From: a bacterium ADurb.Bin157
Lineage (GTDB): Bacteria; Muiribacteriota; Ozemobacteria; Ozemobacterales; Ozemobacteraceae
Direction: 5' to 3'
DNA length: 64,000 nucleotides
Assembly (NCBI GenBank): GCA_002070375.1
Contig: MWDD01000001.1
Coordinates: 17,425-81,424 of the forward strand
In this document: positions 9,092-54,469 of the stretch, one piece after another
Layout of the letters: each line of letters begins with the position of its first letter
How positions within the stretch are numbered: position 1 is the stretch's first letter
Notes under the pieces: model-generated
What the model saw: only the letters and a program-made list of their open reading frames with translations
Databases searched by the model: none
Told to the model about the DNA's origin: nothing
Position numbers and translations under genes: made by a program

Positions 9092-11203
9092 TTACGGGTT
9101 TACTTTCTGACAACACCTAAAGAGCTTTAGAGAGCGACTTTTCAATTTTGTGCTTTGCCCCGAGAAAACCAATTCTTCGGCATTTGGATCAAAGGTTGAT
9201 ATCATCAACTCCCAATGCGCTTCGAATTTTGGCAAAATATACACTTTATCTTCACTTGATGCGTTTAACATAAGTAAAAGATTGTCATCATGAAGCGGGA
9301 CTCCGTTCTCATCAACATCGTCTACCCCGCTTCCTGCCAAAAACATGCTTAAACTTCTGGTATTATGACTCGACCAAGCTTGATCATCCATTTCAGTACC
9401 GTCAGGCTTATACCAAATAATATCCCTGACATTGCTTCCTCTTATTAATCTGCCCTGAAAAAACTTAGTTCTGTGCAACACAGGGTGATCTCGCCTAATC
9501 TTAATTACTTTTCTAGTAAACTGAAGCATTTTTTGACTTTCTTCATCAAGGTTCCAATCAAACCAGCTTATTTCGTTATCTTGACAATATGCGTTATTGT
9601 TACCCTTTTGCGTTCTTCTTATTTCGTCACCGCCGCACAACATTGGTGTTCCCTGCGAAAACATCAAAGTCGCCAAAAAGTTACGCATTTGTCTGTTTCT
9701 TAATTCTTTGATTCCCGGATTATTGGTTTCGCCTTCGACCCCATGATTCCATGACCTATTATCGTTGGTTCCGTCGCGGTTGCTTTCAAGATTGCTTTCG
9801 TTGTGCTTATCATTATATGAAACCAGGTCTCTTAACGTAAAACCGTCGTGAGCTGTAACAAAATTAATGCTCATATATGGCCTGCGGCCATCGTTCTCAT
9901 ATAAATCGCTGCTGCCGGTAAGACGATATCCCATTTCTCCGACACAACCGCCGTCACCTTTCCAGAATGAACGCATTACATCTCTGTATTTCGCATTCCA
10001 CTCCGCCCACAGCACAGGAAAATTTCCGACTTGATAGCCGCCCTCACCTACATCCCACGGTTCCGCAATCAATTTAACTTGGCTTATTGTCGGGTCTTGG
10101 TGAATAATAGTGAAAAAACTTGAGAGCTGATTCCAGTAATGCATTTCACGAGCCAAAGTCGAGCACAAATCAAACCTGAATCCGTCTACATGCATTTCTG
10201 TCACCCAGTATCTCAGTGAATCCATTATCAATTGCAATGTCTGAGGACTTACAACATTAATTGTATTGCCTGTTCCGGTATAATCCTTGTAATACCGTTT
10301 ATTATCTTTTTGCAGCCTATAATAGGTTAAATTATCTATACCCTTATACGACATTGTCGGCCCTTCATGATTTCCTTCGCAGGTATGGTTGTAAACAACA
10401 TCCAAAATCACTTCAAGCCCGGCTTTATGCAGTTTTTTTACCATTTCTTTAAATTCACGAACCGCTCCGCCCGGAGACTTATCTGAAGCATATCTTATTT
10501 CGGGACTAAAAAATGAAAGAGTGCTGTACCCCCAATAATTCTGCAAACCTTTATCATACAAGAATGGATCGTCAATATGCTGGTGCACAGGCAAAAGCTC
10601 AACTGTAGTAACCCCAAGATCTTTAAGATACTTAATAATTTCATCAGAAGCCAGCCCTGCATAAGTTCCCCGTATTTCATTGGGTATATGCGGACAATTT
10701 TTCGTTATTCCCTTTACGTGAACTTCATAAATAACCGAACGGTGAAACGAGTGTTTTGGCTTAACGTCGCCTTCCCAATCAAAATCAGAATCAATTACTA
10801 TTGACAATGGGGTTCCGGAAGCATAGCTCATTCCCTCTTCAAGGTCTTTATTGGGACTGAAAAGATTATAAGCGTGTATACCGTCTTTGTGACTTTCTAT
10901 TCCGCTAAGAGCCTTCGCATATGGGTCCATTAACAAAACACGCGGGTTAAATCTCAACCCGGCCTCAGGCTTATACTGCCCGTATACCCTGTATGCATAC
11001 ATTTGCCCGGGCTTAAGACCGGCAATATAAATATGCCATACAAATGCAGTTCTGTGGCGCAAAGGAATTCTTACCTCTGCCCGTTGATCATCAAAAAGAC
11101 ATAAATCTACTCCCTGAGCATGTTCACTGTATAAAGCAAAATTTACACCCTTGCCGTCATAGCTCGCGCCAAGCGGATAAGGAGTTCCGGGTTTAACCTG
11201 CAT
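9092..11203 (-). CDS. glgX: glycogen debranching enzyme GlgX (isoamylase, GH13)
   Basis: 703 aa. N-terminal [25 protein letters not shown] catalytic motif, EPWD, NHD. Confidence 0.9.
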
Positions 11204-11217
11204 ATTATCTCTTTTCT

Positions 11218-11496
11218 TTATTTTCGCTCTAAAATTTCAATCAAATGAAAACCAAACTGCGTCTTTATAGGCCCATAAACTTCATTTAAGTTCCCGCTAA
11301 AAACGACTTTATCAAATTCTTTTACCATCATACCGGGCCTAAATTCACCCAAGTCGCCGCCCTTTTTTCCGGAAGGACATTGCGAATGTTTTTCTGCCAA
11401 TGCCGCAAAATCTGCTCCGGCGTTAACCTGTTCAAGCAAATCTAGGCAGTCCTTTTTTTCTTTAACGAGTATGTGTCTCGCGCGTGCTGTTGTCAT
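11218..11496 (-). CDS. ppiC: parvulin-type peptidyl-prolyl cis-trans isomerase (PpiC-like)
   Basis: 92 aa. ARHILVK...[13 protein letters not shown]...GFHLIE parvulin signature. Confidence 0.8.
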
Positions 11497-11516
11497 ATTT
11501 ATTACCTCAGTTATAT

Positions 11517-12293
11517 TTATTTTTGTGCTACGGCCAAAATTGAATCGGATAATTCATTATTAAACGGAGTTCCGTTTAGTCCAAAAATATGTATTTCTTT
11601 GAATCCCGCTTTGTTCAGTAATCTTACAATCTGATCAGACGTGTATATCTGCATTTGCCAGTTTTCAGACCATTTTTCAGGTTTATGTGTTCCATCTTGA
11701 GAGCAAATCAAAGAAGATATCTCTATTTGCTTTTTTCTTTTATTAAGCGTGCAATTACGAACATGGCTTATCAAATGATCTTTAATTATCACTTCTTTGC
11801 TCATATGTGCATACTCTTCAAAAATTGAAGTTTTCATGGCCTCGTAGTTAAGTATGTCAAATACAAGCAACCCGCCGGCATTCAAATTATTTTTTGCATT
11901 TAACAAAAACTTTAAAAATGCCGCCCTGTTAAGGTGACCAATCGCATTAAACATACATATCGCAGCGTCGAATGTTCCATATTTTTCACGGCACATATCA
12001 CCGCAGCAAAAGGTTATGTTTTTTAATCTTTTTGACTTTTTTTGAGCAACTTTAACCATCTCGGGATTTAAATCGCTCGCAGTTAGTTTAAAACCGGCTT
12101 TCGCCAAACCTATTGTTTGCGCACCGGTTCCGCAAGCGAAATCTACAACCGTTTGAACACCATTGATGCCAAACAAATCAACCAAAAAAGAATTTGTGTT
12201 TTTCGATTCCGAAAACCCGGCCAGTTCAAAAAAATCGTAGTATTCTGCGTATCTTGTGTAATCAGGCTGATTCAACATGCTTATAAAACACAA
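11517..12293 (-). CDS. class I SAM-dependent methyltransferase
   Basis: 258 aa. [15 protein letters not shown]-binding motif I. Abuts the upstream esterase gene with no gap. Confidence 0.75.
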
Positions 12294-13115: not shown

Positions 13116-14489
13116 TTAATCCTTATTTTCTTGTTCATCCTTATTTTCTTGATCTTCCTCTTTATTTAAGTCGTTTTTCTTTTTGACGCTCATCTTGAAA
13201 CCAAGGGTAAGAAAAACAAAAGATACAATAATAAACAAAAATGCCAACATTGTCTTACTTATGCTTCTTTTTAAATAAATTACACCGTCACAAATCATTA
13301 TCACAACGTCATAAACGCTGTTAAAAAGGACCTTAAACAGCTTAGCGGCGGCCTCAATAATTTTAACGAAAAACATGTATATTTTTTCAAACCAAAGAGC
13401 CGCAGATTCAAGAATTTTTTCGATAGTCTGAACTAAAGAACCCCCAACATCTTTAACATCTTTAACAAAAAGCTCTAAGCTACCCGATATAAGATTGCCA
13501 AAACTTAAAACAACCGAGATTCCAAATACAGTCAAACCCACCTTATTTTTGCGAGTAAACCAAATCGCAGATGATAAAACAAATAAAAACACAGAATTGA
13601 TGAACTGGGCGCTAAAAGACACATGAGGTCTGAAAAATATTATTAAAAATGAAGTAATAAGAACTGTGTTATCAATTTTTTCCTCATATTTCTCAAACAA
13701 ATCGATCCACATGCTTTTACAAAAATACACACTGCACAGCACCCAAGGCAAGACAACTGTTTCTACAGGCACCTCAGGCATCATAATTCTATAAGAATCC
13801 ATTACATTCAGAAAAATTTGTATCGGCAAAAGAAAAAATACAAAAATCATGCCCCAACGCCATATTCGGGTTTCATCACCTAAATAGGGATTGTTTATTG
13901 TCTCATGAATCTCGGCTTTGCCCCAATTCTCAACAATGAACGGAACTTGTATCAACGCTGCAGCAAGCCAAATATAATAAATTATAGGTATTTCATACAC
14001 ATACTTAAAGTTTATTGAATCAAGAATTAAATAGGTTAGCTTTGGGGAAATCCATACCAATAAAAATGAAGATAACAAAAAAAGAATTCTGCTCTTATAA
14101 ACCTTAAGATTTAACACTTTAATTACCGCCACAAACTTAATAAGCGCAAGCAGAATATACAGTAAAGTAGCACCCCAACCGATTAAAGTACTTAATGAAG
14201 AAATTCTTACCTGATAAAAGGTTATATCACCCATTAAAATAAGTCCAAAAGCAAGCAGCATTTTGCCATGTTCATTCTGAATCTTGTTTTTCAACAGGTA
14301 AATTGCCATGCCAACAACAATTAGTTCATAAACATTTTGTATGGCAAATATACTTAAAATAGCACTGACAGAAACTTCGGACGGATTATCAATGGTCGTG
14401 CCCGCCAAATATAACCCTAATAGCATAAAAAGAACGCTGATCAGATATAATGGATTGTTTTTTTCTAACCACTCTTGTAATGTTTTCAT
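13116..14489 (-). CDS. polytopic membrane protein, unknown function, acidic repetitive C-terminus
   Basis: 457 aa, about 10 hydrophobic segments. C-terminal KEEDQENKDEQENKD repeat is encoded by the direct DNA repeat tccttattttcttg x2 at 13120-13160. Confidence 0.5.
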   Translation of the reverse strand: MKTLQEWLEKNNPLYLISVLFMLLGLYLAGTTIDNPSEVSVSAILSIFAIQNVYELIVVGMAIYLLKNKIQNEHGKMLLAFGLILMGDITFYQVRISSLSTLIGWGATLLYILLALIKFVAVIKVLNLKVYKSRILFLLSSFLLVWISPKLTYLILDSINFKYVYEIPIIYYIWLAAALIQVPFIVENWGKAEIHETINNPYLGDETRIWRWGMIFVFFLLPIQIFLNVMDSYRIMMPEVPVETVVLPWVLCSVYFCKSMWIDLFEKYEEKIDNTVLITSFLIIFFRPHVSFSAQFINSVFLFVLSSAIWFTRKNKVGLTVFGISVVLSFGNLISGSLELFVKDVKDVGGSLVQTIEKILESAALWFEKIYMFFVKIIEAAAKLFKVLFNSVYDVVIMICDGVIYLKRSISKTMLAFLFIIVSFVFLTLGFKMSVKKKNDLNKEEDQENKDEQENKD

Positions 14490-14634
14490 AATAATCTCCG
14501 CAAAAAAAATAATAAAAATAATGTATTATTATGAATCGCAATTATCTTGCCAAAAACCATATTAGCACCCAAACCCCGAAATAGTCTGCAAAAATTCATT
14601 TTAAGCGCGACTAATCTGTCTTAACGCGACAACA

Positions 14635-39670: not shown

Positions 39671-42646
39671 TTATTCAAACGGCGAGCTTTCAAACAAATC
39701 TTCTTTCTGAGGCGTAGCAAAAAGCCATCTAAATAGCTCGCCCACCCACAAAACCAGAGAAGTTCCAAATATAATTGAGAGCCACGTCTGCAAATCAAGA
39801 GGTTCTGTTCTGAACATTTTTCCTCCAAAATGAACGATCAAAAACTGCCCAATAATAATTGCAAAGAATATTAATACGAAACTCTTATTTGAGATAACAT
39901 CTTTAATCGTGGTCTTATTTAATCCTAGGGCACGTGCATTAAACAGATTCCAGACTTGAAGCATGACAAATATTGTAAAGAAAATCGTAAGCTCTTTGTC
40001 AGATATCATCCCGTCCGAACTCATGAAAAATTTAAGTATGCCGACTAATAAGAGATAGAATGATAAACCCACCCCGAAAATATGCTTATACATCGGCTTG
40101 GTAACTATAAAATCATCAGGCTGCCTTGGTTTTCTTGCCATTACTTTCCAATGAGGAGGTTCTGTAGCAAGAGCAAGAGCAGCAAATGTATCCATTATTA
40201 AATTTACCCAGAGCATTTGAACCACAGTAAGAGGCATTTTAATACCTATAAAAGGCCCTGTAAGTGCAATTGCAAGAGCCACCACATTTATTGTCAGCTG
40301 AAACATAACAAATCTTTGTATGTTGTCATAGAGAGAACGGCCCCACATGATACCCTTAACAACGCTTGGAAATGAGTCATCCAACAAAATAATATCACTT
40401 GCTTCTTTTGCCACAGAAGTGCCCGTTTTACCCATTGAAAGGCCAACATTAGCGTGATTTAGAGCCGGCGCGTCATTTGTTCCGTCACCGGTTACAGCAA
40501 CCACATTTTTCGATTTCTGCAAAAGCTTAACAAGCCTAAGTTTATCATTTGGCCTTGCTCTTGACATTATTTTAATTTTATCGGCCACGATCAGTGCTTC
40601 TTCGTCAGAGAGACTCTGAAAGTCCCTTCCCGTAATATGAACTTCGTCTTTGTTATCAACAGTATCAATCAACCCGCTTTGCCTTGAAATTTCCCAAGCC
40701 GTATTGGAGTTATCTCCGGTTATGACCTTCACTTTTACGCCTGCATTTCTGCATACAGAAAGCGCTATCGGCACATCCGGTCTAATCGGATCTGCAATCG
40801 CAACGAACCCTAACCAAACCAAACCATTTGCAACATCTTTTATTTCGCTTCCCGCAACCGCTTCTAAGTTTGTTTTAAAAGCATAACCAAGAGTTCTCAT
40901 CCCCCTATCTTGCTGCGATTTCAACTCTTTGATTATGTCAGGCATAACAGACGAAATGGTTTGCAGACCGGTTTTTGTCAATACTTCGGTGCATCGTTCA
41001 AGTATTATTTCAGGGGCGCCTTTTACATATAATATGTTTTCTTTTCCTGCATCTGAAACTCCGAAAGTGCCCATCATCTTTCTTTCAGTCGAAAAAGTCC
41101 ATTGTTTTTTAATATCAAAAGACTCTCGTTTTGTCGCATAATCAATACCATTGTCTTTCAGCCAAATAAGGGTCGCCGCCTCGGTCGGGTTTCCTATCGG
41201 CGAAAACACGCCCTCTTTTACAGCAATATTAGCAGTGCTGTTTACAGCAATTGCCTCTATAATTAACTTTTCGGCGTCATTAAGCTTATCTGCACTCAAT
41301 TCAGCATCTTTAAGAACGTGAAAGTGAACAGAACTCATCAACATTTTATTTTGTGTGAGCGTCCCCGTTTTATCTGAACAAATAACAGTTGCCGCACCAA
41401 TAGTTTCACACGCGTGCATTCGCCTAACCAGATTATTTGCTGCTGTCATTTTTCTCATGCTGTATGCCAAACTTAGAGTAACGCTCATGGGCAAGCCTTC
41501 AGGAACAGCGACAACAATGATTGTAACCGCTATCATAAAAAACTGTAAAAACTCTTTTGCACCTTCAAGCGTCATCCATAAACTCGGATCTGTTGGCAAA
41601 ATCTTAGTCAAAACCCCTAGCCCTAAAGCTAAACCACAAAACACCAAACCGACCAACATTGTTTTTAACCAAGAGGCGATCCCCGCTTCTTCGGTTATCT
41701 TAGGCAATTTTATTTCCCTTCCCATGAATTCAAAGGCATCCGCTACAATAGGCATCCAAACCTTTGAAAGCATTATCATGCCGCCGATAAAAACAATTAT
41801 GGAAAAAATCCATTGATAGGTTTCAAGAATCAATTCTTTTGTAAAATAATCGCGAGCTATAAGAGAAGTGAAAGTAAGAAAAGCTACAAAAAAACCCACA
41901 ACCCCAATAAGCTTGCTTAATTTATCAAGCTGTATATTCAAGGGGGTTTCTTCGCCACTTTCTTCGCCGGCCGACCTAGCGGCTTTTCCTATTTCGGTTT
42001 TGTCTCCGACAGCCGTTACTTGCATTGTTCCGTGACCGTCGCTTATAAGAGTGCTTCTTAATAAAACATTCATAGGATAAGCATGCCCCGTGTCGCTCTT
42101 GTAACCTTCTGTCCCCTCGGGAAATTTTTCAACCGGAAGCGACTCCCCTGTTAATTTAGCTTCATCGACCTGCAAAGACACAGATGACAATAAAATACCG
42201 TCAGCCGGGATTTCTTCTCCGGGTTCCAACATTACTATATCGCCCACAACCAAATCTTTTAAGGGAACCGCCGCAAAGACATTGTCTCTTATTACGTTTA
42301 CTTCAGCTTCATCTGACACTTTATTAAGGATATCAAATTCTTTGGCTGCCTTATATTCATTTATAAATGCCAATATAGTTGCCAAAAGAATTGCAATTAT
42401 TATTCCGATCCCCTCAAAAAATTCTTTACTCACAAAACCTACGCCTACTGCAATAACAGCTGCAATCATTAAAATTCTTATGATCGGATCATCAAATTTT
42501 TCCAACAACAACTTCCACCAAGGTTCTCTTTCGGCAGGAGTAAGAATATTAGAACCATATTTCTCACGGCTTTCAAGCACCTGTTGCTCAGTCAAGCCCC
42601 TAAAAACATGACGGTCCCGGGGCAATTTTTCAGGTTGATTTAACAT
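39671..42646 (-). CDS. calcium-translocating P-type ATPase (P2A/P2B)
   Basis: 991 aa. DKTGTLT phosphorylation motif, TGDN, GDGTNDAPAL, 10 TM helices. Confidence 0.9.
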   Translation of the reverse strand: MLNQPEKLPRDRHVFRGLTEQQVLESREKYGSNILTPAEREPWWKLLLEKFDDPIIRILMIAAVIAVGVGFVSKEFFEGIGIIIAILLATILAFINEYKAAKEFDILNKVSDEAEVNVIRDNVFAAVPLKDLVVGDIVMLEPGEEIPADGILLSSVSLQVDEAKLTGESLPVEKFPEGTEGYKSDTGHAYPMNVLLRSTLISDGHGTMQVTAVGDKTEIGKAARSAGEESGEETPLNIQLDKLSKLIGVVGFFVAFLTFTSLIARDYFTKELILETYQWIFSIIVFIGGMIMLSKVWMPIVADAFEFMGREIKLPKITEEAGIASWLKTMLVGLVFCGLALGLGVLTKILPTDPSLWMTLEGAKEFLQFFMIAVTIIVVAVPEGLPMSVTLSLAYSMRKMTAANNLVRRMHACETIGAATVICSDKTGTLTQNKMLMSSVHFHVLKDAELSADKLNDAEKLIIEAIAVNSTANIAVKEGVFSPIGNPTEAATLIWLKDNGIDYATKRESFDIKKQWTFSTERKMMGTFGVSDAGKENILYVKGAPEIILERCTEVLTKTGLQTISSVMPDIIKELKSQQDRGMRTLGYAFKTNLEAVAGSEIKDVANGLVWLGFVAIADPIRPDVPIALSVCRNAGVKVKVITGDNSNTAWEISRQSGLIDTVDNKDEVHITGRDFQSLSDEEALIVADKIKIMSRARPNDKLRLVKLLQKSKNVVAVTGDGTNDAPALNHANVGLSMGKTGTSVAKEASDIILLDDSFPSVVKGIMWGRSLYDNIQRFVMFQLTINVVALAIALTGPFIGIKMPLTVVQMLWVNLIMDTFAALALATEPPHWKVMARKPRQPDDFIVTKPMYKHIFGVGLSFYLLLVGILKFFMSSDGMISDKELTIFFTIFVMLQVWNLFNARALGLNKTTIKDVISNKSFVLIFFAIIIGQFLIVHFGGKMFRTEPLDLQTWLSIIFGTSLVLWVGELFRWLFATPQKEDLFESSPFE

Positions 42647-42940
42647 ATAAAGCGACTCCTCAAAAAACAGTTTGATTATTTTCGCCGATTATACAGTTTA
42701 AGAGTTTAACAAGCAAGATAAATATTAGCAAAACACTGACTAACAAAGGAGTTCAAGAACAGAAAAAACAAAGCAATTTTTTTGCCAATTTATAAAGCTC
42801 CCCTTAATTTAGGCTTTACAGAAAAAAAACTATGACAAAAATGACACACCCAAAGACAATATTGTCGCACTTCAGAATATACATTGAAAAAACAACTCTG
42901 AAATAGTAGACTTAAGCCAATCAATCATTAAGGAAAAATT

Positions 42941-47124: not shown

Positions 47125-49716
47125 TTAAAGCCTTGCATCTATAATCGTTTTTAGTTTACCGGTACGACTGTTTCGGGTTATTTTTCCAGGTTTGTACCAT
47201 TCAATAGCAACAGTCATCCAGCCTTCATGCAAAGACTCGGCGATCTTATAAGACTCGTTTTTGAGTGCCTCTAACACAGCAACGTCAGAAACGGGTTTTT
47301 CAGCTTCAAGTCTGAGACAAAGCCGGTCTTTGCCTTCAAAGGTCTGAGCTTCAATCTGGAAAGACTGGCTGACAGGCAGCTTAGCAAGCCCTGCAGCCAC
47401 ATCAGCGGGCATAAGATTTATGCCCCCGATTACGATGAGTTCATCACATCGGCCCAGCAACTCAAACGATTTGCCTTTAAACCCGCACTTGCATGGTTCC
47501 GAGACAATCCATCGCCCCATGTCTCCGGTTTTATACCTAATTACAGGCATCAGTGTTTTATTCAAATTAGTTACAACTATTTCGCCCGCCTCATTAATTT
47601 CAGCCTGTTTACCGGTAATCGGCGAAATTATTTCACAGTAGCAATACTGGTCCAATACGTGGTGAATTGTGCCTGAAAGATGTTCGCACTGCCAACCTAC
47701 CGGCCCTGTATCAACGCAAGCATAGCCGGCAGAACGAATAATTTTTGCCCCTACAGTTTCTTTTAAAAACTTGCAGGTTTCAGGTCTTAGATGTTCACCG
47801 CCATATAATATTTTTTCGATCTTTATGTCCGATTTAAGTCGTTTAATTTCTTCCGCAAGTTTAATAATTATTGAAGGAAGCCCAACTACAGCATTCACAT
47901 CAAAAATTTTCAAATATTTCAAAGTGTTGCTTAAGTCAGAAGAACCGCCTACCGGCAAATTTAAGCATCCGAGATTCTCTAATGCTCTTCCGGCAACGTT
48001 AAAGCTTGTCCACAGATTGCCCGCAATAAACAAATTGGCAACTCTGTCAAATTTTGATAAACCGGCATTTCTGTAGATATCAGTCAGTAAATCTGTTACA
48101 TATTTGTATTCATCATTTGAATAGAAAGAAAATTTTGGGTTTCCGGTGGTTCCGCCCGAAGCGTATACATAAGCGTCAATTGGCTCTCTTGTTAATATAT
48201 CATTAGATTCGGGGGGTGAATTTTTGTAAAAGGTTTCTCTGTCAAGCAAAGGGAGTTTTTCAAAATTTTCAAATCCGCACCCGCCGGCCTTTTCAATAAT
48301 TGAGTTGTAATAAACAGAAGAATTAATTTGTGAAAGCAACTTTTCCACTCTGCTTTCGGGGGTATCTCTGTATTCAAGGGCAACCATATCTACTAAGCGT
48401 CTAAGCATAAATTCGCCCTCGTGAGGCGCTCCGTCGTGTCCTTCACTCATTCCGCCAATTTCGGTTACTCTTTTTGCTCCCAGTTCAAACAATTCGTCTT
48501 CAAGCCGAGCAAAACACTCAGGATATGCGCAAACACCTACTGTTTGCAAATATGATGACAAAGGCTTAACTTGAACAATTAAATCTTCTATCGAAGAAAT
48601 TCTTTTAATAAACAAAGTTCTGTTAAGGCATGAGACTTTAAACACGGGGTCATATTCAAGCACAAGCGTAAAACTGAAATCTTCCGGGCACTCAAGCCTT
48701 CCTTCGCCTTTAGCCTGCGACATTGTAGCCAGCTCGCGAACTTTTCTGATTTCTACTTTTTCATCGAAAGTTAAATTTCCCGCCGGCAAATCTTCGCTAA
48801 GCTTCAATAGCTCATCATAAAGATATTCCATCAACAAATGCGACGTTTTAATATCTTTGTCTAAAACATACACAACATGGGGCGAAGAGCAAGCCTGTTG
48901 ATCCCAGCGTGCCACATCCAATGCCAGTGAAGCGGCAATCTGAGGGGCAGTCGAAACCTTAATCTTTCGCCCTTCAATTACAGCAAAAGAAAATCTCGGG
49001 CCGTTTTCAACCAGCCTTGCAGCATCTCCCAATCTTGATTTAAGCGATTTCAAGGCCTCATACCCGCCCCAGAAAACAATAGTTGCAGGGGAATTAAGTA
49101 TCGGGTTCTCTATGCTTTCATCGCCGCCCTTCCACGAAATCGCCGCCTGATTGGGCCAAATAATACCGGCCGGGTCGTGCTCTTTTATGCTTTCTATGAA
49201 CAAAACAGGAAAAACCGTGTCTACACGAGACATTTTAAGAATATTTACATTTTTTGTGATTATACCTGATACAAGGCTATCCACAGCTCCGACAAAAACA
49301 TTGCCGGCAGTAAGATGCACTAAAACCCCACGGCTCTTGGCTTTGAGCTTGTAGCCCAAATGAGGCTGTTCTTCGCCCTCGTCAAATAATCGCAAAGAAT
49401 TAAACTCACCTTTAAGGCGTTTTTCCAGATTTTTTCTTGCGCAAATTTGACTTACCACATCAAACCCGGCGTCAGTCATTTCGGGGCTGAAATCTGTAAG
49501 TTTGGGCATAACCTCGGCCGCTTCAACCCTTAAGTGATAATTCGGATCTGCCCAAGCCGCAGAAACATTATCAAGAATATCAAGAATGCAGTCTATATCG
49601 GGGGTCGCCGCAATAGCAGCTCTCTCAAATGCTTCAGAAAGTATATCGGATATATTTTCTGAAGAAACAAATTCAGATTTGACAAATTTTCCAAAAACAC
49701 AGCATTTATTTTTCAT
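47125..49716 (-). CDS. fusion protein: LuxC-like acyl-CoA/acyl-protein reductase (N-terminal) plus PaaK/LuxE-like adenylate-forming domain (C-terminal)
   Basis: 863 aa. N-terminal aldehyde-dehydrogenase-like LuxC fold (about 1-450). C-terminal ASGGTTGNPKF adenylation motif and a PaaK-like body. Confidence 0.65.
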   Translation of the reverse strand: MKNKCCVFGKFVKSEFVSSENISDILSEAFERAAIAATPDIDCILDILDNVSAAWADPNYHLRVEAAEVMPKLTDFSPEMTDAGFDVVSQICARKNLEKRLKGEFNSLRLFDEGEEQPHLGYKLKAKSRGVLVHLTAGNVFVGAVDSLVSGIITKNVNILKMSRVDTVFPVLFIESIKEHDPAGIIWPNQAAISWKGGDESIENPILNSPATIVFWGGYEALKSLKSRLGDAARLVENGPRFSFAVIEGRKIKVSTAPQIAASLALDVARWDQQACSSPHVVYVLDKDIKTSHLLMEYLYDELLKLSEDLPAGNLTFDEKVEIRKVRELATMSQAKGEGRLECPEDFSFTLVLEYDPVFKVSCLNRTLFIKRISSIEDLIVQVKPLSSYLQTVGVCAYPECFARLEDELFELGAKRVTEIGGMSEGHDGAPHEGEFMLRRLVDMVALEYRDTPESRVEKLLSQINSSVYYNSIIEKAGGCGFENFEKLPLLDRETFYKNSPPESNDILTREPIDAYVYASGGTTGNPKFSFYSNDEYKYVTDLLTDIYRNAGLSKFDRVANLFIAGNLWTSFNVAGRALENLGCLNLPVGGSSDLSNTLKYLKIFDVNAVVGLPSIIIKLAEEIKRLKSDIKIEKILYGGEHLRPETCKFLKETVGAKIIRSAGYACVDTGPVGWQCEHLSGTIHHVLDQYCYCEIISPITGKQAEINEAGEIVVTNLNKTLMPVIRYKTGDMGRWIVSEPCKCGFKGKSFELLGRCDELIVIGGINLMPADVAAGLAKLPVSQSFQIEAQTFEGKDRLCLRLEAEKPVSDVAVLEALKNESYKIAESLHEGWMTVAIEWYKPGKITRNSRTGKLKTIIDARL

Positions 49717-49730
49717 ATAAGATTTCCCGC

Positions 49731-50858
49731 TTACTTTAGCAAATCAAGGGCATTAATAGCGCAGCCTTTATGTTTGGCCAAGCCCGCACGCCCAACTATT
49801 CTGAATGTTTTACCCGGTCTTTTGCATGGGCAGTTATCCTCGATAACCGCTTTATCGGTTGTCAGCAAAGAAATTGACGGGTAGGAAGACAAATAGGGTG
49901 TCATAAGATAAAGCAGCCCCTCTTCGCCGTCTTTAACCGGTTGCAATGTTTCGGGGTCAACAGCCATAGCCCTAGAGTAAATAGGAACATGAAGCCTGCC
50001 ATGTTCGCAGTCGACATACGGAATACCATGTTCGACCATTCCAAACAAATCTCTCAAGTTTTCACCGGGAATATTCAGAATTTTATTGATTCTCTTTTTG
50101 AAAACATCTTTTGTTACTTCAAGATTCTTATGCATTTTCCAACCGCCGCCGGTAATAATGAAAGAATCGCGGTTGAAATTCAGATTAATCCCTCTTTTTT
50201 CGAGCCAATCGCATACTTGCCACAAGTAAGCGGGGAAACCGAGAATTCTGACCGGTTCGGGTCTTTGCGAAAAATCTATAAGTTTTTTTGCGGTAGCTTC
50301 GAGATCGAAACTAAAATCATTCAATTTTTTATTCCATTTTATTGCATAAAAGACAGTTCTGTGAGCAGTCAAATCGGTTAGTAATTTATCGGAAAAAGCT
50401 GTTCCAACACTTTTAGCGTATTTGGGGTCATATGTAAAACACAAGTAGTTAACCTTTTGAGAATGATTTACCATACCGAGAGACGAAAAAATATTTTCTA
50501 CAATTTTTAAGATTCTTTTGTATGATCTGGCATCAAGTATTATAGAACTTTTTCGGCCTCCTGTGCCTGAAGATGTGAGTTCGAGTTTTACTTGCTTATC
50601 GGGAACAGAAGCCAGCTTAAACTCTTTAAAAACTGTCACGAGCAATGGCGGAATCTGTTCGGGCAAATAGTCGCTTTTAAAATCTATCAAGCCCGACAGG
50701 TTTAAAAAAGATTTAAATTCAGGACATTTAGAAACATGCCACCTTAAAGCTTCGTTCATAGCTTTATTAAACAATTCTTCGGTTTGTGGTGTATGATCGA
50801 ATGCCCGGGTAATATCGAAAAGTTTGCCGCAATTTTCAAAAGGTTTACCTTCAGCCAA
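49731..50858 (-). CDS. LuxE-family acyl-protein synthetase
   Basis: 375 aa. LTSSGTGG motif. Size and architecture of luciferase-operon LuxE. Confidence 0.65.
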   Translation of the reverse strand: MAEGKPFENCGKLFDITRAFDHTPQTEELFNKAMNEALRWHVSKCPEFKSFLNLSGLIDFKSDYLPEQIPPLLVTVFKEFKLASVPDKQVKLELTSSGTGGRKSSIILDARSYKRILKIVENIFSSLGMVNHSQKVNYLCFTYDPKYAKSVGTAFSDKLLTDLTAHRTVFYAIKWNKKLNDFSFDLEATAKKLIDFSQRPEPVRILGFPAYLWQVCDWLEKRGINLNFNRDSFIITGGGWKMHKNLEVTKDVFKKRINKILNIPGENLRDLFGMVEHGIPYVDCEHGRLHVPIYSRAMAVDPETLQPVKDGEEGLLYLMTPYLSSYPSISLLTTDKAVIEDNCPCKRPGKTFRIVGRAGLAKHKGCAINALDLLK

Positions 50859-52035
50859 GTCTCCACTCCTCGTCGAAATCAGGCTGGCAGCGGACTAGCA
50901 AATCATACCAGCATTTCATAAAAGCATCTAAAAATCTACGATTATTATCTACTAAGTTCATATCCATAAAATCAAGTTTCTCGAAAGACCTTGAAAATAT
51001 AAGATAATCCTCGCGCAACCCTTCGTCGTTCATTCTCATGCCGGGGAAATACGCGCAAGGCAAAAACTTAGCGTCTAAAGCAAGTCTTTGTCTTTCGGGA
51101 AGAAACGCACTAACCAGCATTTCAATGTATCTCATTCCTGATTTGGCGGCTTCTTCACAAAACCACATTAAGGTTTTTCTTAAATTTTTCCCTGAGAACC
51201 TGTAGCCCAGTATAACTCCGTTACCGTCTAAGGGATTAAAGTTTACAAAAAAATCAGCCGAATTGTCCTTTGCCGAATAAAGCATATTAGGGTCGGTAAA
51301 GGGAAAAAATACTCTTTGCATCATATCTTTGTTTTGATATTCATAAAATTTATCGGTTACGGCTTTTATATCGCTGCAAACATCAAAACATATAGGTCGG
51401 CCCATTTTTCGAGGGTCTTTTGATTCAAGCTCAATAATTTCGGGATCTTCAAGATTTAAATCAGTTTGCACAATTTTGTAAAAATCAAGCATTTGAGGAA
51501 TCAATTTAGGTGTTTTTCTTCGGAATTCAAGACATTTTGGGCCAAAATAGACCTCTAACCCGTGTGTTTCGAACGATTCCACTTTTCTGACGTTAGGGAA
51601 AATACCGGTCGATTTAAAATTTAAATGTTCAAGCACCATTTGCGGTGCAAAGCTGACGGTTCTGGTTGTGGCATAAATAGCATCGCAGGTTCTTGTTTTT
51701 TCGGTGAGTTTTTCAAGGCTGTCCTTTACCATCACCCGCATCACATCTTGCCCTCGAAATTCACTGAGCACAACAGCAGCGTAAGACTTGCCAAGTTTAT
51801 TGACCGGGTCTATCGCAAAAATAACGGAGCCAATAAGCCTGTCACCTATTTTTGCCACAGTCCAAAAGTAGCCGGGATCTTCAACTTTAGCCGCAACAAC
51901 TTCAGGGTCAGCTACTTCCGGTAGGGTATATTTTCCTTTATAGACTTCGATATAAAGGTTAATTATCGCATCAACATCTTCAATTGAAGCAGTAGAGAAA
52001 CGCACAATTCTATTGTCTTTAAGAATCAGTTGCAA
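50851..52035 (-). CDS. tandem GNAT-fold acyltransferase
   Basis: 394 aa. N-terminal GNAT core (IGSVIFAIDPV...) and a second GNAT-like half. TTG start. 8-nt overlap with luxE. Confidence 0.55.
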   Translation of the reverse strand: MQLILKDNRIVRFSTASIEDVDAIINLYIEVYKGKYTLPEVADPEVVAAKVEDPGYFWTVAKIGDRLIGSVIFAIDPVNKLGKSYAAVVLSEFRGQDVMRVMVKDSLEKLTEKTRTCDAIYATTRTVSFAPQMVLEHLNFKSTGIFPNVRKVESFETHGLEVYFGPKCLEFRRKTPKLIPQMLDFYKIVQTDLNLEDPEIIELESKDPRKMGRPICFDVCSDIKAVTDKFYEYQNKDMMQRVFFPFTDPNMLYSAKDNSADFFVNFNPLDGNGVILGYRFSGKNLRKTLMWFCEEAAKSGMRYIEMLVSAFLPERQRLALDAKFLPCAYFPGMRMNDEGLREDYLIFSRSFEKLDFMDMNLVDNNRRFLDAFMKCWYDLLVRCQPDFDEEWRLG

Positions 52036-52111: not shown

Positions 52112-52142
52112 AAAAACGCCGCCTTAGTTTAATTAAGGCGGC
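52112..52142 (-). terminator. rho-independent terminator after the hsp20 pair
   Basis: GCCGCCTTA-N7-TAAGGCGGC hairpin followed on the minus strand by U5. Confidence 0.6.
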
Positions 52143-52163
52143 ATTTAAGTTAATCAGATCTAA

Positions 52164-52565
52164 TCAGTGAATCTTTACGCTTATCATTCGGGGCTGCGTT
52201 TCTTTTGCAAAGGGCAAGAACACCTTCAACACGCCATTATTAAGCTCGGCATTGATGTTTTCCTGATCGACCGATTCTGCCAATTCAAATTGTCTGAAAT
52301 AATTTGAGGGCTCATATTCTCTCATCAAAAAACCGGTATCAAGATCAGGAGTAATGTGCCCCTCGATTGTCAATATGTTTTTATCTACTGACAACTTCAA
52401 ACCCTCTTTATCTACCCCCGGCAAGTCCGCAACAAGCTTCAACCCGTTTTCTTCTTCATAAATATCTGTTAATGGGGTTATAAATGAATCCGGTTCTCTT
52501 GTAACCTCGCGTTTAACCATCTGAGTTTCGTTATTTTTTGTATTAGGTATAGTTTTTTCAGCCAT
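52164..52565 (-). CDS. Hsp20/alpha-crystallin small heat-shock protein
   Basis: 133 aa. Alpha-crystallin domain, ...GVLKVFLPF C-terminus. AAGGAG ribosome-binding site. Confidence 0.85.
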   Translation of the reverse strand: MAEKTIPNTKNNETQMVKREVTREPDSFITPLTDIYEEENGLKLVADLPGVDKEGLKLSVDKNILTIEGHITPDLDTGFLMREYEPSNYFRQFELAESVDQENINAELNNGVLKVFLPFAKETQPRMISVKIH

Positions 52566-52603: not shown

Positions 52604-53050
52604 TCAGTTAACTTTAATTGAAATTTGCTTCGGTTTCGCTTCTTCTGCCTTAGGCATTGTAATTTTCAAAATGCCGTTAACATATTCGGCTTCGACCTTT
52701 TCCGGTTCGATTGGCACAGGAAGCTCTATCGTTCTCACAAATTTACCCGCAGAGCGTTCGCTTCTGTGGATCTTTTCTTCGGGAATATCCAATTTGATTT
52801 TTTCACCGCTGATTGTGAGCTTGTCACGCAGGGCAGAAACTTTCAGATTTTCAACATCAATACCGGGCGCAAGCGCTTCAACAGTAATTTTTTCATCATC
52901 GGCAGACACATTCATCATGGGAAAATGCCTTCTGGATATTCCCGGCAAAAACGCATTTCTCGGATAGTTTTCCCAGGCATTCAACCGCGCGAGTTCACCA
53001 ATTTGACTTTGCAATTGTTCCATTTCTTTGAAAAAGTTCCATATAGACAT
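52604..53050 (-). CDS. Hsp20/alpha-crystallin small heat-shock protein
   Basis: Alpha-crystallin domain, GILKITMPK. Start set at the ATG at 53050, which has an AGGAGG ribosome-binding site 7 nt upstream. The ORF track's 53071 GTG start lies inside the ribosome-binding site. Confidence 0.85.
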   Translation of the reverse strand: MSIWNFFKEMEQLQSQIGELARLNAWENYPRNAFLPGISRRHFPMMNVSADDEKITVEALAPGIDVENLKVSALRDKLTISGEKIKLDIPEEKIHRSERSAGKFVRTIELPVPIEPEKVEAEYVNGILKITMPKAEEAKPKQISIKVN

Positions 53051-53118
53051 ATCTATTCCTCCTTTGACCACCCTTTCGAGGGCGTATTCAAATTAAATTT
53101 CATTCACGCAAATATATA

Positions 53119-53135
53119 TTGCAAACACCGTGCCA
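53119..53135 (-). promoter_or_regulatory. sigma-54 (RpoN) -24/-12 promoter TGGCACG-GTGT-TTGCA upstream of hsp20
   Basis: Exact match to the TGGCACG-N4-TTGCW consensus, about 70 nt upstream of the hsp20 ATG. Confidence 0.6.
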
Positions 53136-53251
53136 ACTTTTAAAACTCGCTTCCAATGCGGATTTAAGATTATTTAATGGAATGGCGCAACGCAGTCTGC
53201 AACGATGCGCTACGTTGCAACAAGACGTCTGTCGGTGGTATAATCCCGTAA

Positions 53252-54469
53252 ATGAAAAAATACGACACAATTGTAATAGGTGCGGGTCCCTCAGGCATTA
53301 TGGCAGCGATCACCGCAACAAAGAACAACAAAAAATGTTTACTGATTGAACGCAACAGTTACGTCGGCGCAAAAATTTTAGCCAGCGGCGGCGGACGATG
53401 CAACTTAAGCAACACATTACCGACCGAAGCTTTCGTAAGTATGTTTAGCCGCGAAGGCAAGTTCATGTTAAGCAGCTTAAAAACATTCGGAAGCAAAGAA
53501 TTAACGGAATTTCTGGCCTCTGTCGGCGTTAAATGCCACGCTCCCGACGGGTTCAGGATTTTTCCCACAACCCACGATTCTAAAACCGTTGTAAACGCTT
53601 TAACCCAAGAGTTACAGCGTTTGAACACCGACATTCTTATGTCTCATCGGGTTACTGAAATAAACAACCGTAACGGCAGCTGGGAAATAGATAACGCTTA
53701 TTTTTGCAACAAACTGATTATTGCCACCGGCGGTCTTGGTTTTATGCACTTGGGGACCGAAGGCGACGGCTACAAATTCGCGACCGCAACCGGGCACAAA
53801 ATTACGAAGCTTTTTCCGGCAATGCTGCCGATTGAGACAAAAGAAACCTGGGTTAAAAACTGCCGCGCGGACACTATCGGCAAAGCGGTCGTTCAGATTA
53901 ACCTGCCAAAACACTGCAATAAAAAGGCTGTCGGAGATTTAATTTTCACATCGACAGGCATCAGGGGGCCTGTCGTATTAGATTTTGCGCGAGAAATAAC
54001 GCCTTTAATCGATGAATACGGCGAGGTTCCTTTGCTGATCAATTTGGTTGGCGGGCTGAACGAAGAACAAATAAGAGCTAAAATTAAAAGTTTGCCGCAA
54101 AACAAAATTTCCCTGCCGCTGCCCGAGATGTTAAACACATTGGTGCCGGAACCGCTTTGCGTAGAATTATGCAAATTAGTCGGGATCGATTTTTCTTGCA
54201 CTATCAGTAAAGTTGAAAAGATAAAAAGAGACAAACTGATAAAATTACTCGCAAAGACCCCTCTTACCGCAATAAGCTGCGGAGGGTTCAAAGAAGCCAT
54301 GGTTACGAGGGGCGGAGTGAGTCTTAAAGACATCAATTGCCAAACCTTAGAAAGCAAAATAAGTAAAAATTTATATTTTTGCGGCGAGGTATTAGACCTA
54401 GACGGGCCGTGCGGGGGATATAACCTTCAATGGGCATTCACGAGCGGATTTATAGCAGGATCAAATTAA
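53252..54469 (+). CDS. HI0933/YhiN-family FAD-dependent oxidoreductase
   Basis: 405 aa. IVIGAGPSGIMAA dinucleotide-binding motif, GGGRCN. Consensus -35/-10 (TTGCAA-18-TATAAT) ends 7 nt before the ATG, so the mRNA is probably leaderless. Confidence 0.75.
   Translation: MKKYDTIVIGAGPSGIMAAITATKNNKKCLLIERNSYVGAKILASGGGRCNLSNTLPTEAFVSMFSREGKFMLSSLKTFGSKELTEFLASVGVKCHAPDGFRIFPTTHDSKTVVNALTQELQRLNTDILMSHRVTEINNRNGSWEIDNAYFCNKLIIATGGLGFMHLGTEGDGYKFATATGHKITKLFPAMLPIETKETWVKNCRADTIGKAVVQINLPKHCNKKAVGDLIFTSTGIRGPVVLDFAREITPLIDEYGEVPLLINLVGGLNEEQIRAKIKSLPQNKISLPLPEMLNTLVPEPLCVELCKLVGIDFSCTISKVEKIKRDKLIKLLAKTPLTAISCGGFKEAMVTRGGVSLKDINCQTLESKISKNLYFCGEVLDLDGPCGGYNLQWAFTSGFIAGSN

Follow-up and report, generated by a model that had tools for sequence, protein, structure and literature searches.

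The small heat-shock genes hsp20A and hsp20B of the Ozemobacteraceae bacterium ADurb.Bin157 probably form an operon transcribed from an enhancer-dependent sigma-54 promoter, and its activator is most likely the Riflebacteria representative of a family of enhancer-binding proteins (EBPs) that combine a PAS domain, an AAA+ domain with a GAFTGA motif and a helix-turn-helix (HTH) domain. The genes lie in a 64-kb stretch of contig MWDD01000001.1 (64,000 nucleotides, referred to below as the window). The evidence consists of the sequences of the promoter and enhancer elements, their conservation and geometry, the fact that they travel with the hsp20 pair in other species, and the linkage of an EBP gene to equivalent operons in other phyla. 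The components of the operon and of its promoter are as follows; both proteins scored well above the PF00011 gathering threshold of 20.8 bits.

52604..53050, minus strand: hsp20A, coding for a 148-amino-acid HSP20/alpha-crystallin protein (PF00011, E = 5e-20, 71.9 bits)
52164..52565, minus strand: hsp20B, second cistron, coding for a 133-amino-acid HSP20 protein (PF00011, E = 3.4e-17, 62.9 bits)
52114..52146, minus strand: intrinsic terminator of the two-gene operon, a 13-pair stem and a T run, starting 18 nt past the hsp20B stop codon
53051..53109, minus strand: predicted 5′ leader of ~59 nt, with the start placed by sigma-54 geometry
53135..53120, minus strand: sigma-54 -24/-12 promoter TGGCACGGTGTTTGCA, a zero-mismatch match to the consensus that is conserved upstream of orthologues
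53136..53145, minus strand: conserved A/T tract TTTTAAAAGT, abutting the -24 element on its upstream side

Predicted sigma-54 promoter of the hsp20 operon

Read on the minus strand, positions 53135..53120 contain TGGCACG-GTGT-TTGCA. This element, TGGCACGGTGTTTGCA, is the single exact match to TGGCACG-N4-TTGCW in the whole window, and its GG and GC dinucleotides are spaced exactly as in the consensus YTGGCACG-N4-TTGCW. An exact match appeared in 8 of 1000 dinucleotide-preserving shuffles of the window (0.8%). The element is located in the 201-bp intergenic region between hsp20A and a divergent flavoprotein gene, has the same orientation as hsp20A, and its -12 GC is 70 nt from the hsp20A ATG. 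A simple sigma-70 scan found no sigma-70-like site on the hsp20 strand of the intergenic region. A previous inspection of this DNA that used the letters only (the sequence-only reading) had proposed the -24/-12 promoter at this location, and the proposal holds, except that the end coordinate it gave, 53119, is one base too far. It had also placed the element ~57 nt from the predicted start. This is close to the ~59-nt leader obtained when transcription is assumed to start at the canonical distance of about 11 nt 3′ of the -12 element (11-12 nt from the -12 GC).

The promoter region was then compared with those of related genes. When a genome collection was scanned with an hsp20A alignment, 43 loci were recovered, nearly all of them from Riflebacteria or Ozemobacteraceae species, and the comparison set consisted of 42 other species (mostly Riflebacteria) plus the window. 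The window hsp20A shares 51-74% identity with its orthologues in metagenome-assembled genomes of Candidatus Riflebacteria (Rifleibacteriota). A -24/-12 element of the form TGGCAY-N5-(T/A)T(G/T)N is present in all 43 hsp20A upstream regions, 60-100 nt 5′ of the ATG. Across loci there is hardly any variation in the GG or in the -12 TTGC, but the intervening 4-5 nt change freely (GGTGT, GGGGG, ACCCC, GCTGC and others). Near-constant -24 and -12 elements around a free spacer are expected if the sigma-54 promoter is functional; recent common descent would not be expected to leave this pattern. A profile anchored over 42 loci also gave the consensus TTTtnaaAgT for the A/T tract next to the -24 element. 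The assignment of TGGCACGGTGTTTGCA as a sigma-54 promoter is thus strongly supported by conservation.

Putative enhancer palindromes upstream of the promoter

Three copies of the hexamer GCAACG or its complement CGTTGC are found 52-83 nt 5′ of the sigma-54 element (minus-strand reading, GCAACG at 53218..53213 and CGTTGC at 53204..53199 and 53192..53187). The window contains 23 such hexamers, and three of them within 32 bp occurred in 4 of 1000 shuffles (0.4%). The sequence-only reading had described these letters, at 53187-53218, as an inverted repeat GCAACG-N8-CGTTGC accompanied by an extra half-site. The letters are correct, and the symmetry can be followed outward to TGCAACG-N8-CGTTGCA (53219..53198). 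The comparison of species, however, indicates that the functional units are better read as ACGT-centred 10-bp palindromes that repeat about every helical turn, so that the array would consist of two adjacent palindromes and a degenerate third site with a period of about 10-12 bp.

53209..53218, minus strand: distal enhancer site GCAACGTAGC, an ACGT-centred 10-bp palindrome with no mismatches to GCNACGTNGC, starting 83 nt 5′ of the T in TGGCAC
53199..53208, minus strand: proximal enhancer site GCATCGTTGC, one mismatch to GCNACGTNGC, starting 73 nt 5′ of TGGCAC
53187..53196, minus strand: degenerate third site ACTGCGTTGC, two mismatches, containing the CGTTGC at 53192..53187 and starting 61 nt 5′ of TGGCAC

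At least one GCNACGTNGC site with no more than one mismatch was found in 38 of the 43 loci, and at least two in 31. Their positions are not scattered: relative to TGGCA, the site starts peak at -73/-74 (31/43 loci), -84/-85 (20/43) and -61/-62 (four loci, L006, L007, L014 and L047). The sites of the window, starting at -83, -73 and -61, are thus dyads located near the peaks seen throughout the phylum. They have the geometry of an EBP enhancer, for which at least two dyads are expected ~70-150 bp 5′ of the start, with distance and helical phase conserved. The palindrome itself varies among species: GCGACGTCGC, GCAACGTTGC and GCTACGT(T/A)GC all occur, GAAACGTTTC is seen in one species, and the sequence in the Ozemobacteraceae loci is exactly GCGACGTCGC. 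The sequence-only reading had considered the repeats a plausible site for an EBP. This interpretation is supported by the fixed positions across loci and by the finding, described below, of the same palindrome and promoter beside an EBP gene in other phyla.

Conservation and ownership of the elements

The elements travel with the hsp20 pair. hsp20B follows hsp20A in 40 of the 42 other loci, and in the remaining two the contig ends before the position of hsp20B. None of the neighbors of the operon in the window (the flavoprotein, GNAT-like, LuxE-like, LuxC-like and XerC-like recombinase genes) was found within -4 to +5 kb of hsp20 in other species. Since the flanking genes differ elsewhere, it is the hsp20 pair, rather than the divergent flavoprotein gene, to which the promoter and palindromes belong. 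In one Riflebacteria species (L007, 9845-13055) the enhancer, promoter, hsp20A and hsp20B are tandemly duplicated as a unit. A third, longer Hsp20-like gene of this species (241 amino acids, 11165-11890, minus strand), with an apparent hydrophobic N-terminal leader, is located between the two copies.

An EBP family linked to hsp20 operons in other phyla

The most distant relative in the comparison set, L046, whose hsp20A is 45% identical to that of the window, carries GCGACGTCGC-type sites 5′ of a TGGCACGACCTTTGT element and, 2.5 kb downstream of the hsp20 pair, a gene for a 509-amino-acid EBP. Homologues of this EBP exist in many phyla, with 43-76% identity over 94-98% of the length, and its N-terminal domain is common to 109 of the 120 proteins tested. 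That domain (~125 residues) has no match in Pfam or NCBIfam. The N-terminal 131 residues were modeled with confidence as a PAS fold (pLDDT 85.9), with ThkA, HTR-like, FixL and LOV PAS domains as the top structural neighbors. The PAS domain is followed by an AAA+ domain of the Sigma54_activat type, whose signature motif is GAFTGA or GSFTGA, and by a C-terminal Fis-type HTH (HTH_8) with the conserved helix LG(V/I)H(R/K)ATLYR. The EBP reached the cut-off of no NCBIfam equivalog, and therefore the family has no curated name there.

The genomic contexts of two homologues were sampled, and the EBP was linked to hsp20 in both. In Desulfuromonas sp. AOP6 (AP022810.1, where the EBP gene is located within 2730970-2744412) the order is EBP, two TGCGACGTCGCA palindromes, TGGCACGTCCCTTGA, hsp20A, hsp20B and clpB. 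In the second lineage the EBP is 4 kb from TGCGACGTCGCA-TGCGACG, TGGCACATCCCTTGC, an hsp20 pair and dnaK. A metagenome scan that used DNA only, with the pattern GCGACGTCGCA-N55-85-TGGCAY-N5-TTGM, returned at least 120 matching stretches, and 80 loci were analysed. Among the 80 listed, 41 were chance matches inside long reading frames of mostly GC-rich DNA. Among the matches listed, ~27 of the ~39 that are non-coding precede hsp20, clpB or dnaK. Usually the A-B pair of hsp20 genes comes next, and often then clpB; one match directly precedes clpB and one dnaK, and about a dozen have an EBP homologue immediately upstream on the same strand. As judged from these patterns, the palindrome-promoter-hsp20 module is widespread in metagenomes, and the cassette that includes the EBP appears to be widespread as well and to lack a name. 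In the Desulfuromonas-like EBP-linked modules (L049 7590-7605; L061, L072, L075, L082, L083, L088, L115, L127 and L133) the promoter has the form TGGCAY-N5-TTGA(A/T), with TTGA and not TTGC at -12.

The hsp20 genes of the window are related to those of the cassettes as orthologues. The window and cassette HSP20A proteins share 42-45% identity (119-137 bits) and the HSP20B proteins 38-41%. These values are higher than the 32% (58 bits) between the two proteins of the window, which indicates that the window pair is orthologous to the A and B genes of the cassettes. The proximal palindrome is ~60-72 nt from TGGCA in the EBP-linked modules, the distance in the window is similar, and the core of the motif is shared. 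The window therefore has the cassette arrangement, in which a GCNACGTNGC enhancer and then a sigma-54 promoter precede the orthologous hsp20A and hsp20B genes.

Two other observations concern this family and its motif. In one EBP clade (L046 3911-5748; L178 2993-4841; L179 8001-9904) the EBP gene overlaps a small thioredoxin gene immediately downstream, a hint that a redox signal may act on the regulator or be among its outputs. The contexts of P0126 and P0122 also showed the EBP-thioredoxin pair, with no link to Riflebacteria. In L054, L094, L097, L100 and L106 the pattern precedes a different small heat-shock protein of ~196 amino acids with a long N-terminal extension (MKLDLSQWNPFKFFRK...), and further hsp20 genes are divergently upstream, so in these genomes the motif may control several small heat-shock loci.

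Proposed activator of the Riflebacteria operons

Several results weigh against the proposed activation mechanism or against the assignment of its activator. Motif scans and a family hidden Markov model applied to the six-frame open reading frames (ORFs) detected no EBP gene and no gene with an RpoN box in the window. Neither an EBP gene nor rpoN was found within 10 kb beyond either end of the window, where there were only metabolic, flagellar and fatty-acid genes. With the same two tools, about 0.7 Mb of Riflebacteria loci contained no rpoN and, other than that of L046, no EBP gene within 10 kb of hsp20. The adjoining EBP gene of the cassettes is therefore missing both in the window and, over 10 kb, in the Riflebacteria loci, and another EBP family could supply the activator in this phylum. 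There is no match within two mismatches to the IHF consensus WATCAANNNNTTR between the enhancer and the promoter. The sites of the window are degenerate compared with GCGACGTCGC or GCAACGTTGC (one mismatch in the proximal and two in the third), and its two main sites are 10 bp apart as opposed to 11 bp in most relatives. Finally, heat induction is deduced only from the identity of the genes. If the phylum uses the same regulator, the gene would be located elsewhere in the genome; a PAS-domain profile search for a Riflebacteria EBP returned two short proteins only. The presence of rpoN in this genome is likewise presumed.

These results leave some room for a different explanation, in which the promoter is sigma-54-dependent and the sites are recognized by another Riflebacteria EBP, for example a two-component response regulator of the NtrC type whose similar ACGT-centred sites arose by convergence or by inheritance, with the PAS-AAA+-HTH family playing no part. 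Besides the absence of a member of this family near the Riflebacteria hsp20 operons, the Riflebacteria sites, GC(A/T)ACGT(T/A)GC at a spacing of 10-11 bp, differ from the TGCGACGTCGCA sites of other phyla, which are farther apart. Yet the orthologous hsp20A and hsp20B genes, the core of the palindrome and a similar proximal distance are all common to the EBP-linked modules, and the Ozemobacteraceae loci have exactly GCGACGTCGC. A different EBP is consequently regarded as unlikely, and a PAS-AAA+-HTH activator encoded away from the operon is preferred.

Divergent flavoprotein gene and other neighbors

The gene that faces hsp20A across the intergenic region raises the question of which gene the palindromes serve.

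53252-54469, plus strand: HI0933-like flavoprotein gene, divergent neighbor of hsp20A

A sigma-70-like promoter, TTGCAA-18-TATAAT with a TG extension (53215..53244, plus strand, 10/12 matches), serves this gene. It ends 7 nt before the ATG at 53252, which implies a nearly leaderless flavoprotein transcript. The distal hsp20 enhancer site shares bases with the -35 hexamer of this promoter, and binding of the activator could thus affect the divergent gene in this species.

Because of this overlap, the palindromes could be taken as the operator of a repressor or as the site of a regulator of the flavoprotein gene. Such a role is very improbable. The flavoprotein gene is beside hsp20 in none of the 42 other species, yet in them the distance between the palindromes and the sigma-54 element is fixed, and the overlap found here cannot explain a phylum-wide pattern. 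The sites are also 60-95 nt 5′ of the -24 element, too far to block the polymerase, and in other phyla they adjoin an EBP gene. An operator for the flavoprotein gene was rejected on the grounds that this gene neighbors hsp20 in this species only.

On the other side, a cluster of three genes directly 3′ of the hsp20 terminator (47125-52035, minus strand) codes for a 394-amino-acid GNAT-domain protein, a LuxE-like acyl-protein synthetase and an 863-amino-acid protein in which a LuxC-like acyl-CoA reductase is fused to an AMP-binding domain. Contigs of the same species (assembly GCA_028686675.1) have genes of equal sizes and order after hsp20B. In no other Riflebacteria species do the GNAT and LuxE-like genes adjoin hsp20.

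Leader of the hsp20A mRNA

The sequence-only reading had suggested that a hairpin in the 5′ leader could act as a thermosensor. An RNA thermometer formed by this hairpin, CCCUcgaaAGGG, would add translational control of hsp20A. The hairpin is indeed there: CGCCCU-CGAA-AGGGUG, at 53084..53069, is 5 nt 5′ of the ribosome-binding site AGGAGG (53063..53058), which precedes the ATG at 53050. Its proposed function did not stand. The minimum free energy of the leader, -12.9 kcal/mol, equals the mean of shuffled sequences (z = -0.08), and in the centroid structure the AGGAGG is essentially unpaired and the hairpin does not pair with it. An alignment of 12 orthologous leaders placed the hairpin in a lineage-specific insertion of about 16 nt that is absent elsewhere, and RNAalifold predicted no pairs common to the 12. 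Across 42 leaders the Shine-Dalgarno was not consistently paired (median probability unpaired 0.56), and an Rfam scan of the region gave no family match. A thermometer of the ROSE or fourU type was rejected, as the Shine-Dalgarno is not sequestered and no hairpin is conserved; the chance that the leader adds such control is slight.

The last alternative, that the -24/-12 match and the cluster of repeats are chance occurrences with no function, draws on the frequency of two-mismatch sigma-54 matches, of which the window has 10 where shuffles predict 8.2, no enrichment, but the low shuffle frequencies of the exact match and of the half-site cluster, their joint occurrence in the correct orientation and the conservation of their position across the phylum make it untenable.

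Two weaker sigma-54-like elements of the window keep GG-N10-GC, are intergenic and have the orientation of the genes that follow them. The first, TGGCAAGATAATTGCG (14537-14552, minus strand), is 48 nt 5′ of the ATG of a 457-amino-acid ORF with no Pfam match (13116-14489, minus strand). The second, TGGCAAAAAAATTGCT (42772-42787, minus strand), is 126 nt 5′ of a P-type cation ATPase gene (39671-42646, minus strand). Both are unproven, given that two-mismatch matches do not exceed the shuffle expectation.

Comparison with known systems

Textbook control of the bacterial heat-shock response relies on sigma-32, on the repressors HrcA, HspR and CtsR, and on RNA thermometers. Activation by sigma-54 is known from other stress operons. 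The psp operon is transcribed from a sigma-54 promoter with a palindromic enhancer about 80-130 bp upstream, and its activator, PspF, is an AAA+ protein with a C-terminal HTH. PspF itself lacks a sensor domain at its N terminus, depends on IHF and is kept inactive by PspA. The system of the window resembles psp in being a stress operon with a sigma-54 promoter and upstream palindromic sites; it differs in that no IHF site is present. The hsp20-linked EBPs are also unlike PspF in their N-terminal PAS domain and in their scores, 273-301 bits as compared with the PspF cut-off of 443.55 (TIGR02974). In Myxococcus xanthus, the HsfA/HsfB system includes a sigma-54-dependent activator that switches on the heat-shock gene lonD. 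HsfA, a response regulator that undergoes phosphorylation, has a protease gene as its target, whereas the hsp20-linked EBPs carry a PAS domain where HsfA has its receiver and are associated with hsp20-clpB-type operons as targets.

The statement of the sequence-only reading that sigma-54/EBP control of small heat-shock genes is uncommon was partly right and overstated, since there are precedents in E. coli ibpB, Planctomycetota and Bacteroidota, and the module described here is widespread in metagenomes. The ibpB gene of E. coli has a sigma-54 promoter (Kuczynska-Wisnik et al. 2001, cited in PMC2831329, where it served as a positive control for chromatin immunoprecipitation), and to that extent it is like the window, an HSP20-family gene with a sigma-54 promoter in both cases. 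In E. coli, however, the promoter is a weak one (TGGTAA-N5-TTGC) that is internal to ibpAB and supplements the main sigma-32 promoter, and PMC2831329 mentions no dedicated activator or enhancer for it. In the window, no promoter-like site other than the consensus sigma-54 promoter was found on that strand of the intergenic region, and this promoter precedes the whole operon and is accompanied by a conserved enhancer array.

A 2025 survey (PMC12316311) found predicted sigma-54 promoters to be enriched upstream of GroEL/ES, DnaK/J, GrpE and IbpA-type small heat-shock genes in Planctomycetota and Bacteroidota, thus outside the Proteobacteria. In the passages of the survey consulted, only promoters are scored, no enhancer motif or EBP is named and Riflebacteria are not mentioned; the present analysis defines the motif of the enhancer and its geometry, together with a candidate family of EBPs. 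Among studies of individual groups, the analysis of delta-proteobacterial regulons (Rodionov 2004, PMC545781) gives only sigma-32 and CIRCE, and no hsp20 regulon appears in the Desulfovibrio sigma-54 regulome (PMC4641369). In Geobacter, over-expression of RpoN increased expression of chaperone genes for which no promoter elements were detected (PMC2725144). An atypical -12 element with TTGA, as in the Desulfuromonas-like modules, may explain why those promoters escaped detection. No publication that describes the GCGACGTCGC enhancer, or a PAS-EBP dedicated to hsp20/clpB, was found, an absence that is weak evidence because most subscription journals were not covered.

Proposed mechanism and significance

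In the proposed mechanism, sigma-54 RNA polymerase would bind at 53135..53120 and stay in a closed complex. Dimers of the EBP would occupy the adjacent palindromes at 53218..53199 and the degenerate third site at 53196..53187, which are predicted to be centred about 80-105 bp 5′ of the start (~53109) and to recur every 10-12 bp. The EBP would then assemble into an AAA+ ring, reach the polymerase by DNA looping and open the promoter with ATP, and the resulting bicistronic hsp20A-hsp20B mRNA would end at the intrinsic terminator. The likely signal is heat or protein-folding stress, as suggested by the nature of the regulated genes, which code for small heat-shock proteins, ClpB and DnaK.

A broader proposal is that a multi-phylum regulon exists, in which a dedicated PAS-AAA+-HTH EBP and GCGACGTCGC-type palindromes activate hsp20A-hsp20B(-clpB/dnaK) through sigma-54, with the PAS domain or a chaperone partner as the stress sensor and with the gene of the regulator separated from the operon in Riflebacteria. 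This is offered tentatively, as an idea with somewhat less than an even chance of being correct.

As a kind of system, an enhancer-dependent sigma-54 promoter is ordinary; the regulon itself is a new member. A sigma-54 promoter is silent without its activator. If such a promoter is all that an hsp20 operon has, its transcription should be tightly shut off until the dedicated ATPase activator receives its trigger. The window provides a clean example, conserved throughout the phylum, in an uncultured lineage. The recurring cassette, consisting of the PAS-EBP, palindromic enhancer, sigma-54 promoter, hsp20A, hsp20B and often clpB, yields parts that can be tested: a DNA motif of defined sequence, a candidate family of regulators that has no curated name, and a cultured host, Desulfuromonas sp. 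AOP6. If the multi-phylum regulon is real, it would represent a positive form of heat-shock control distinct from sigma-32, HrcA/CIRCE, HspR/HAIR, CtsR and RNA thermometers.

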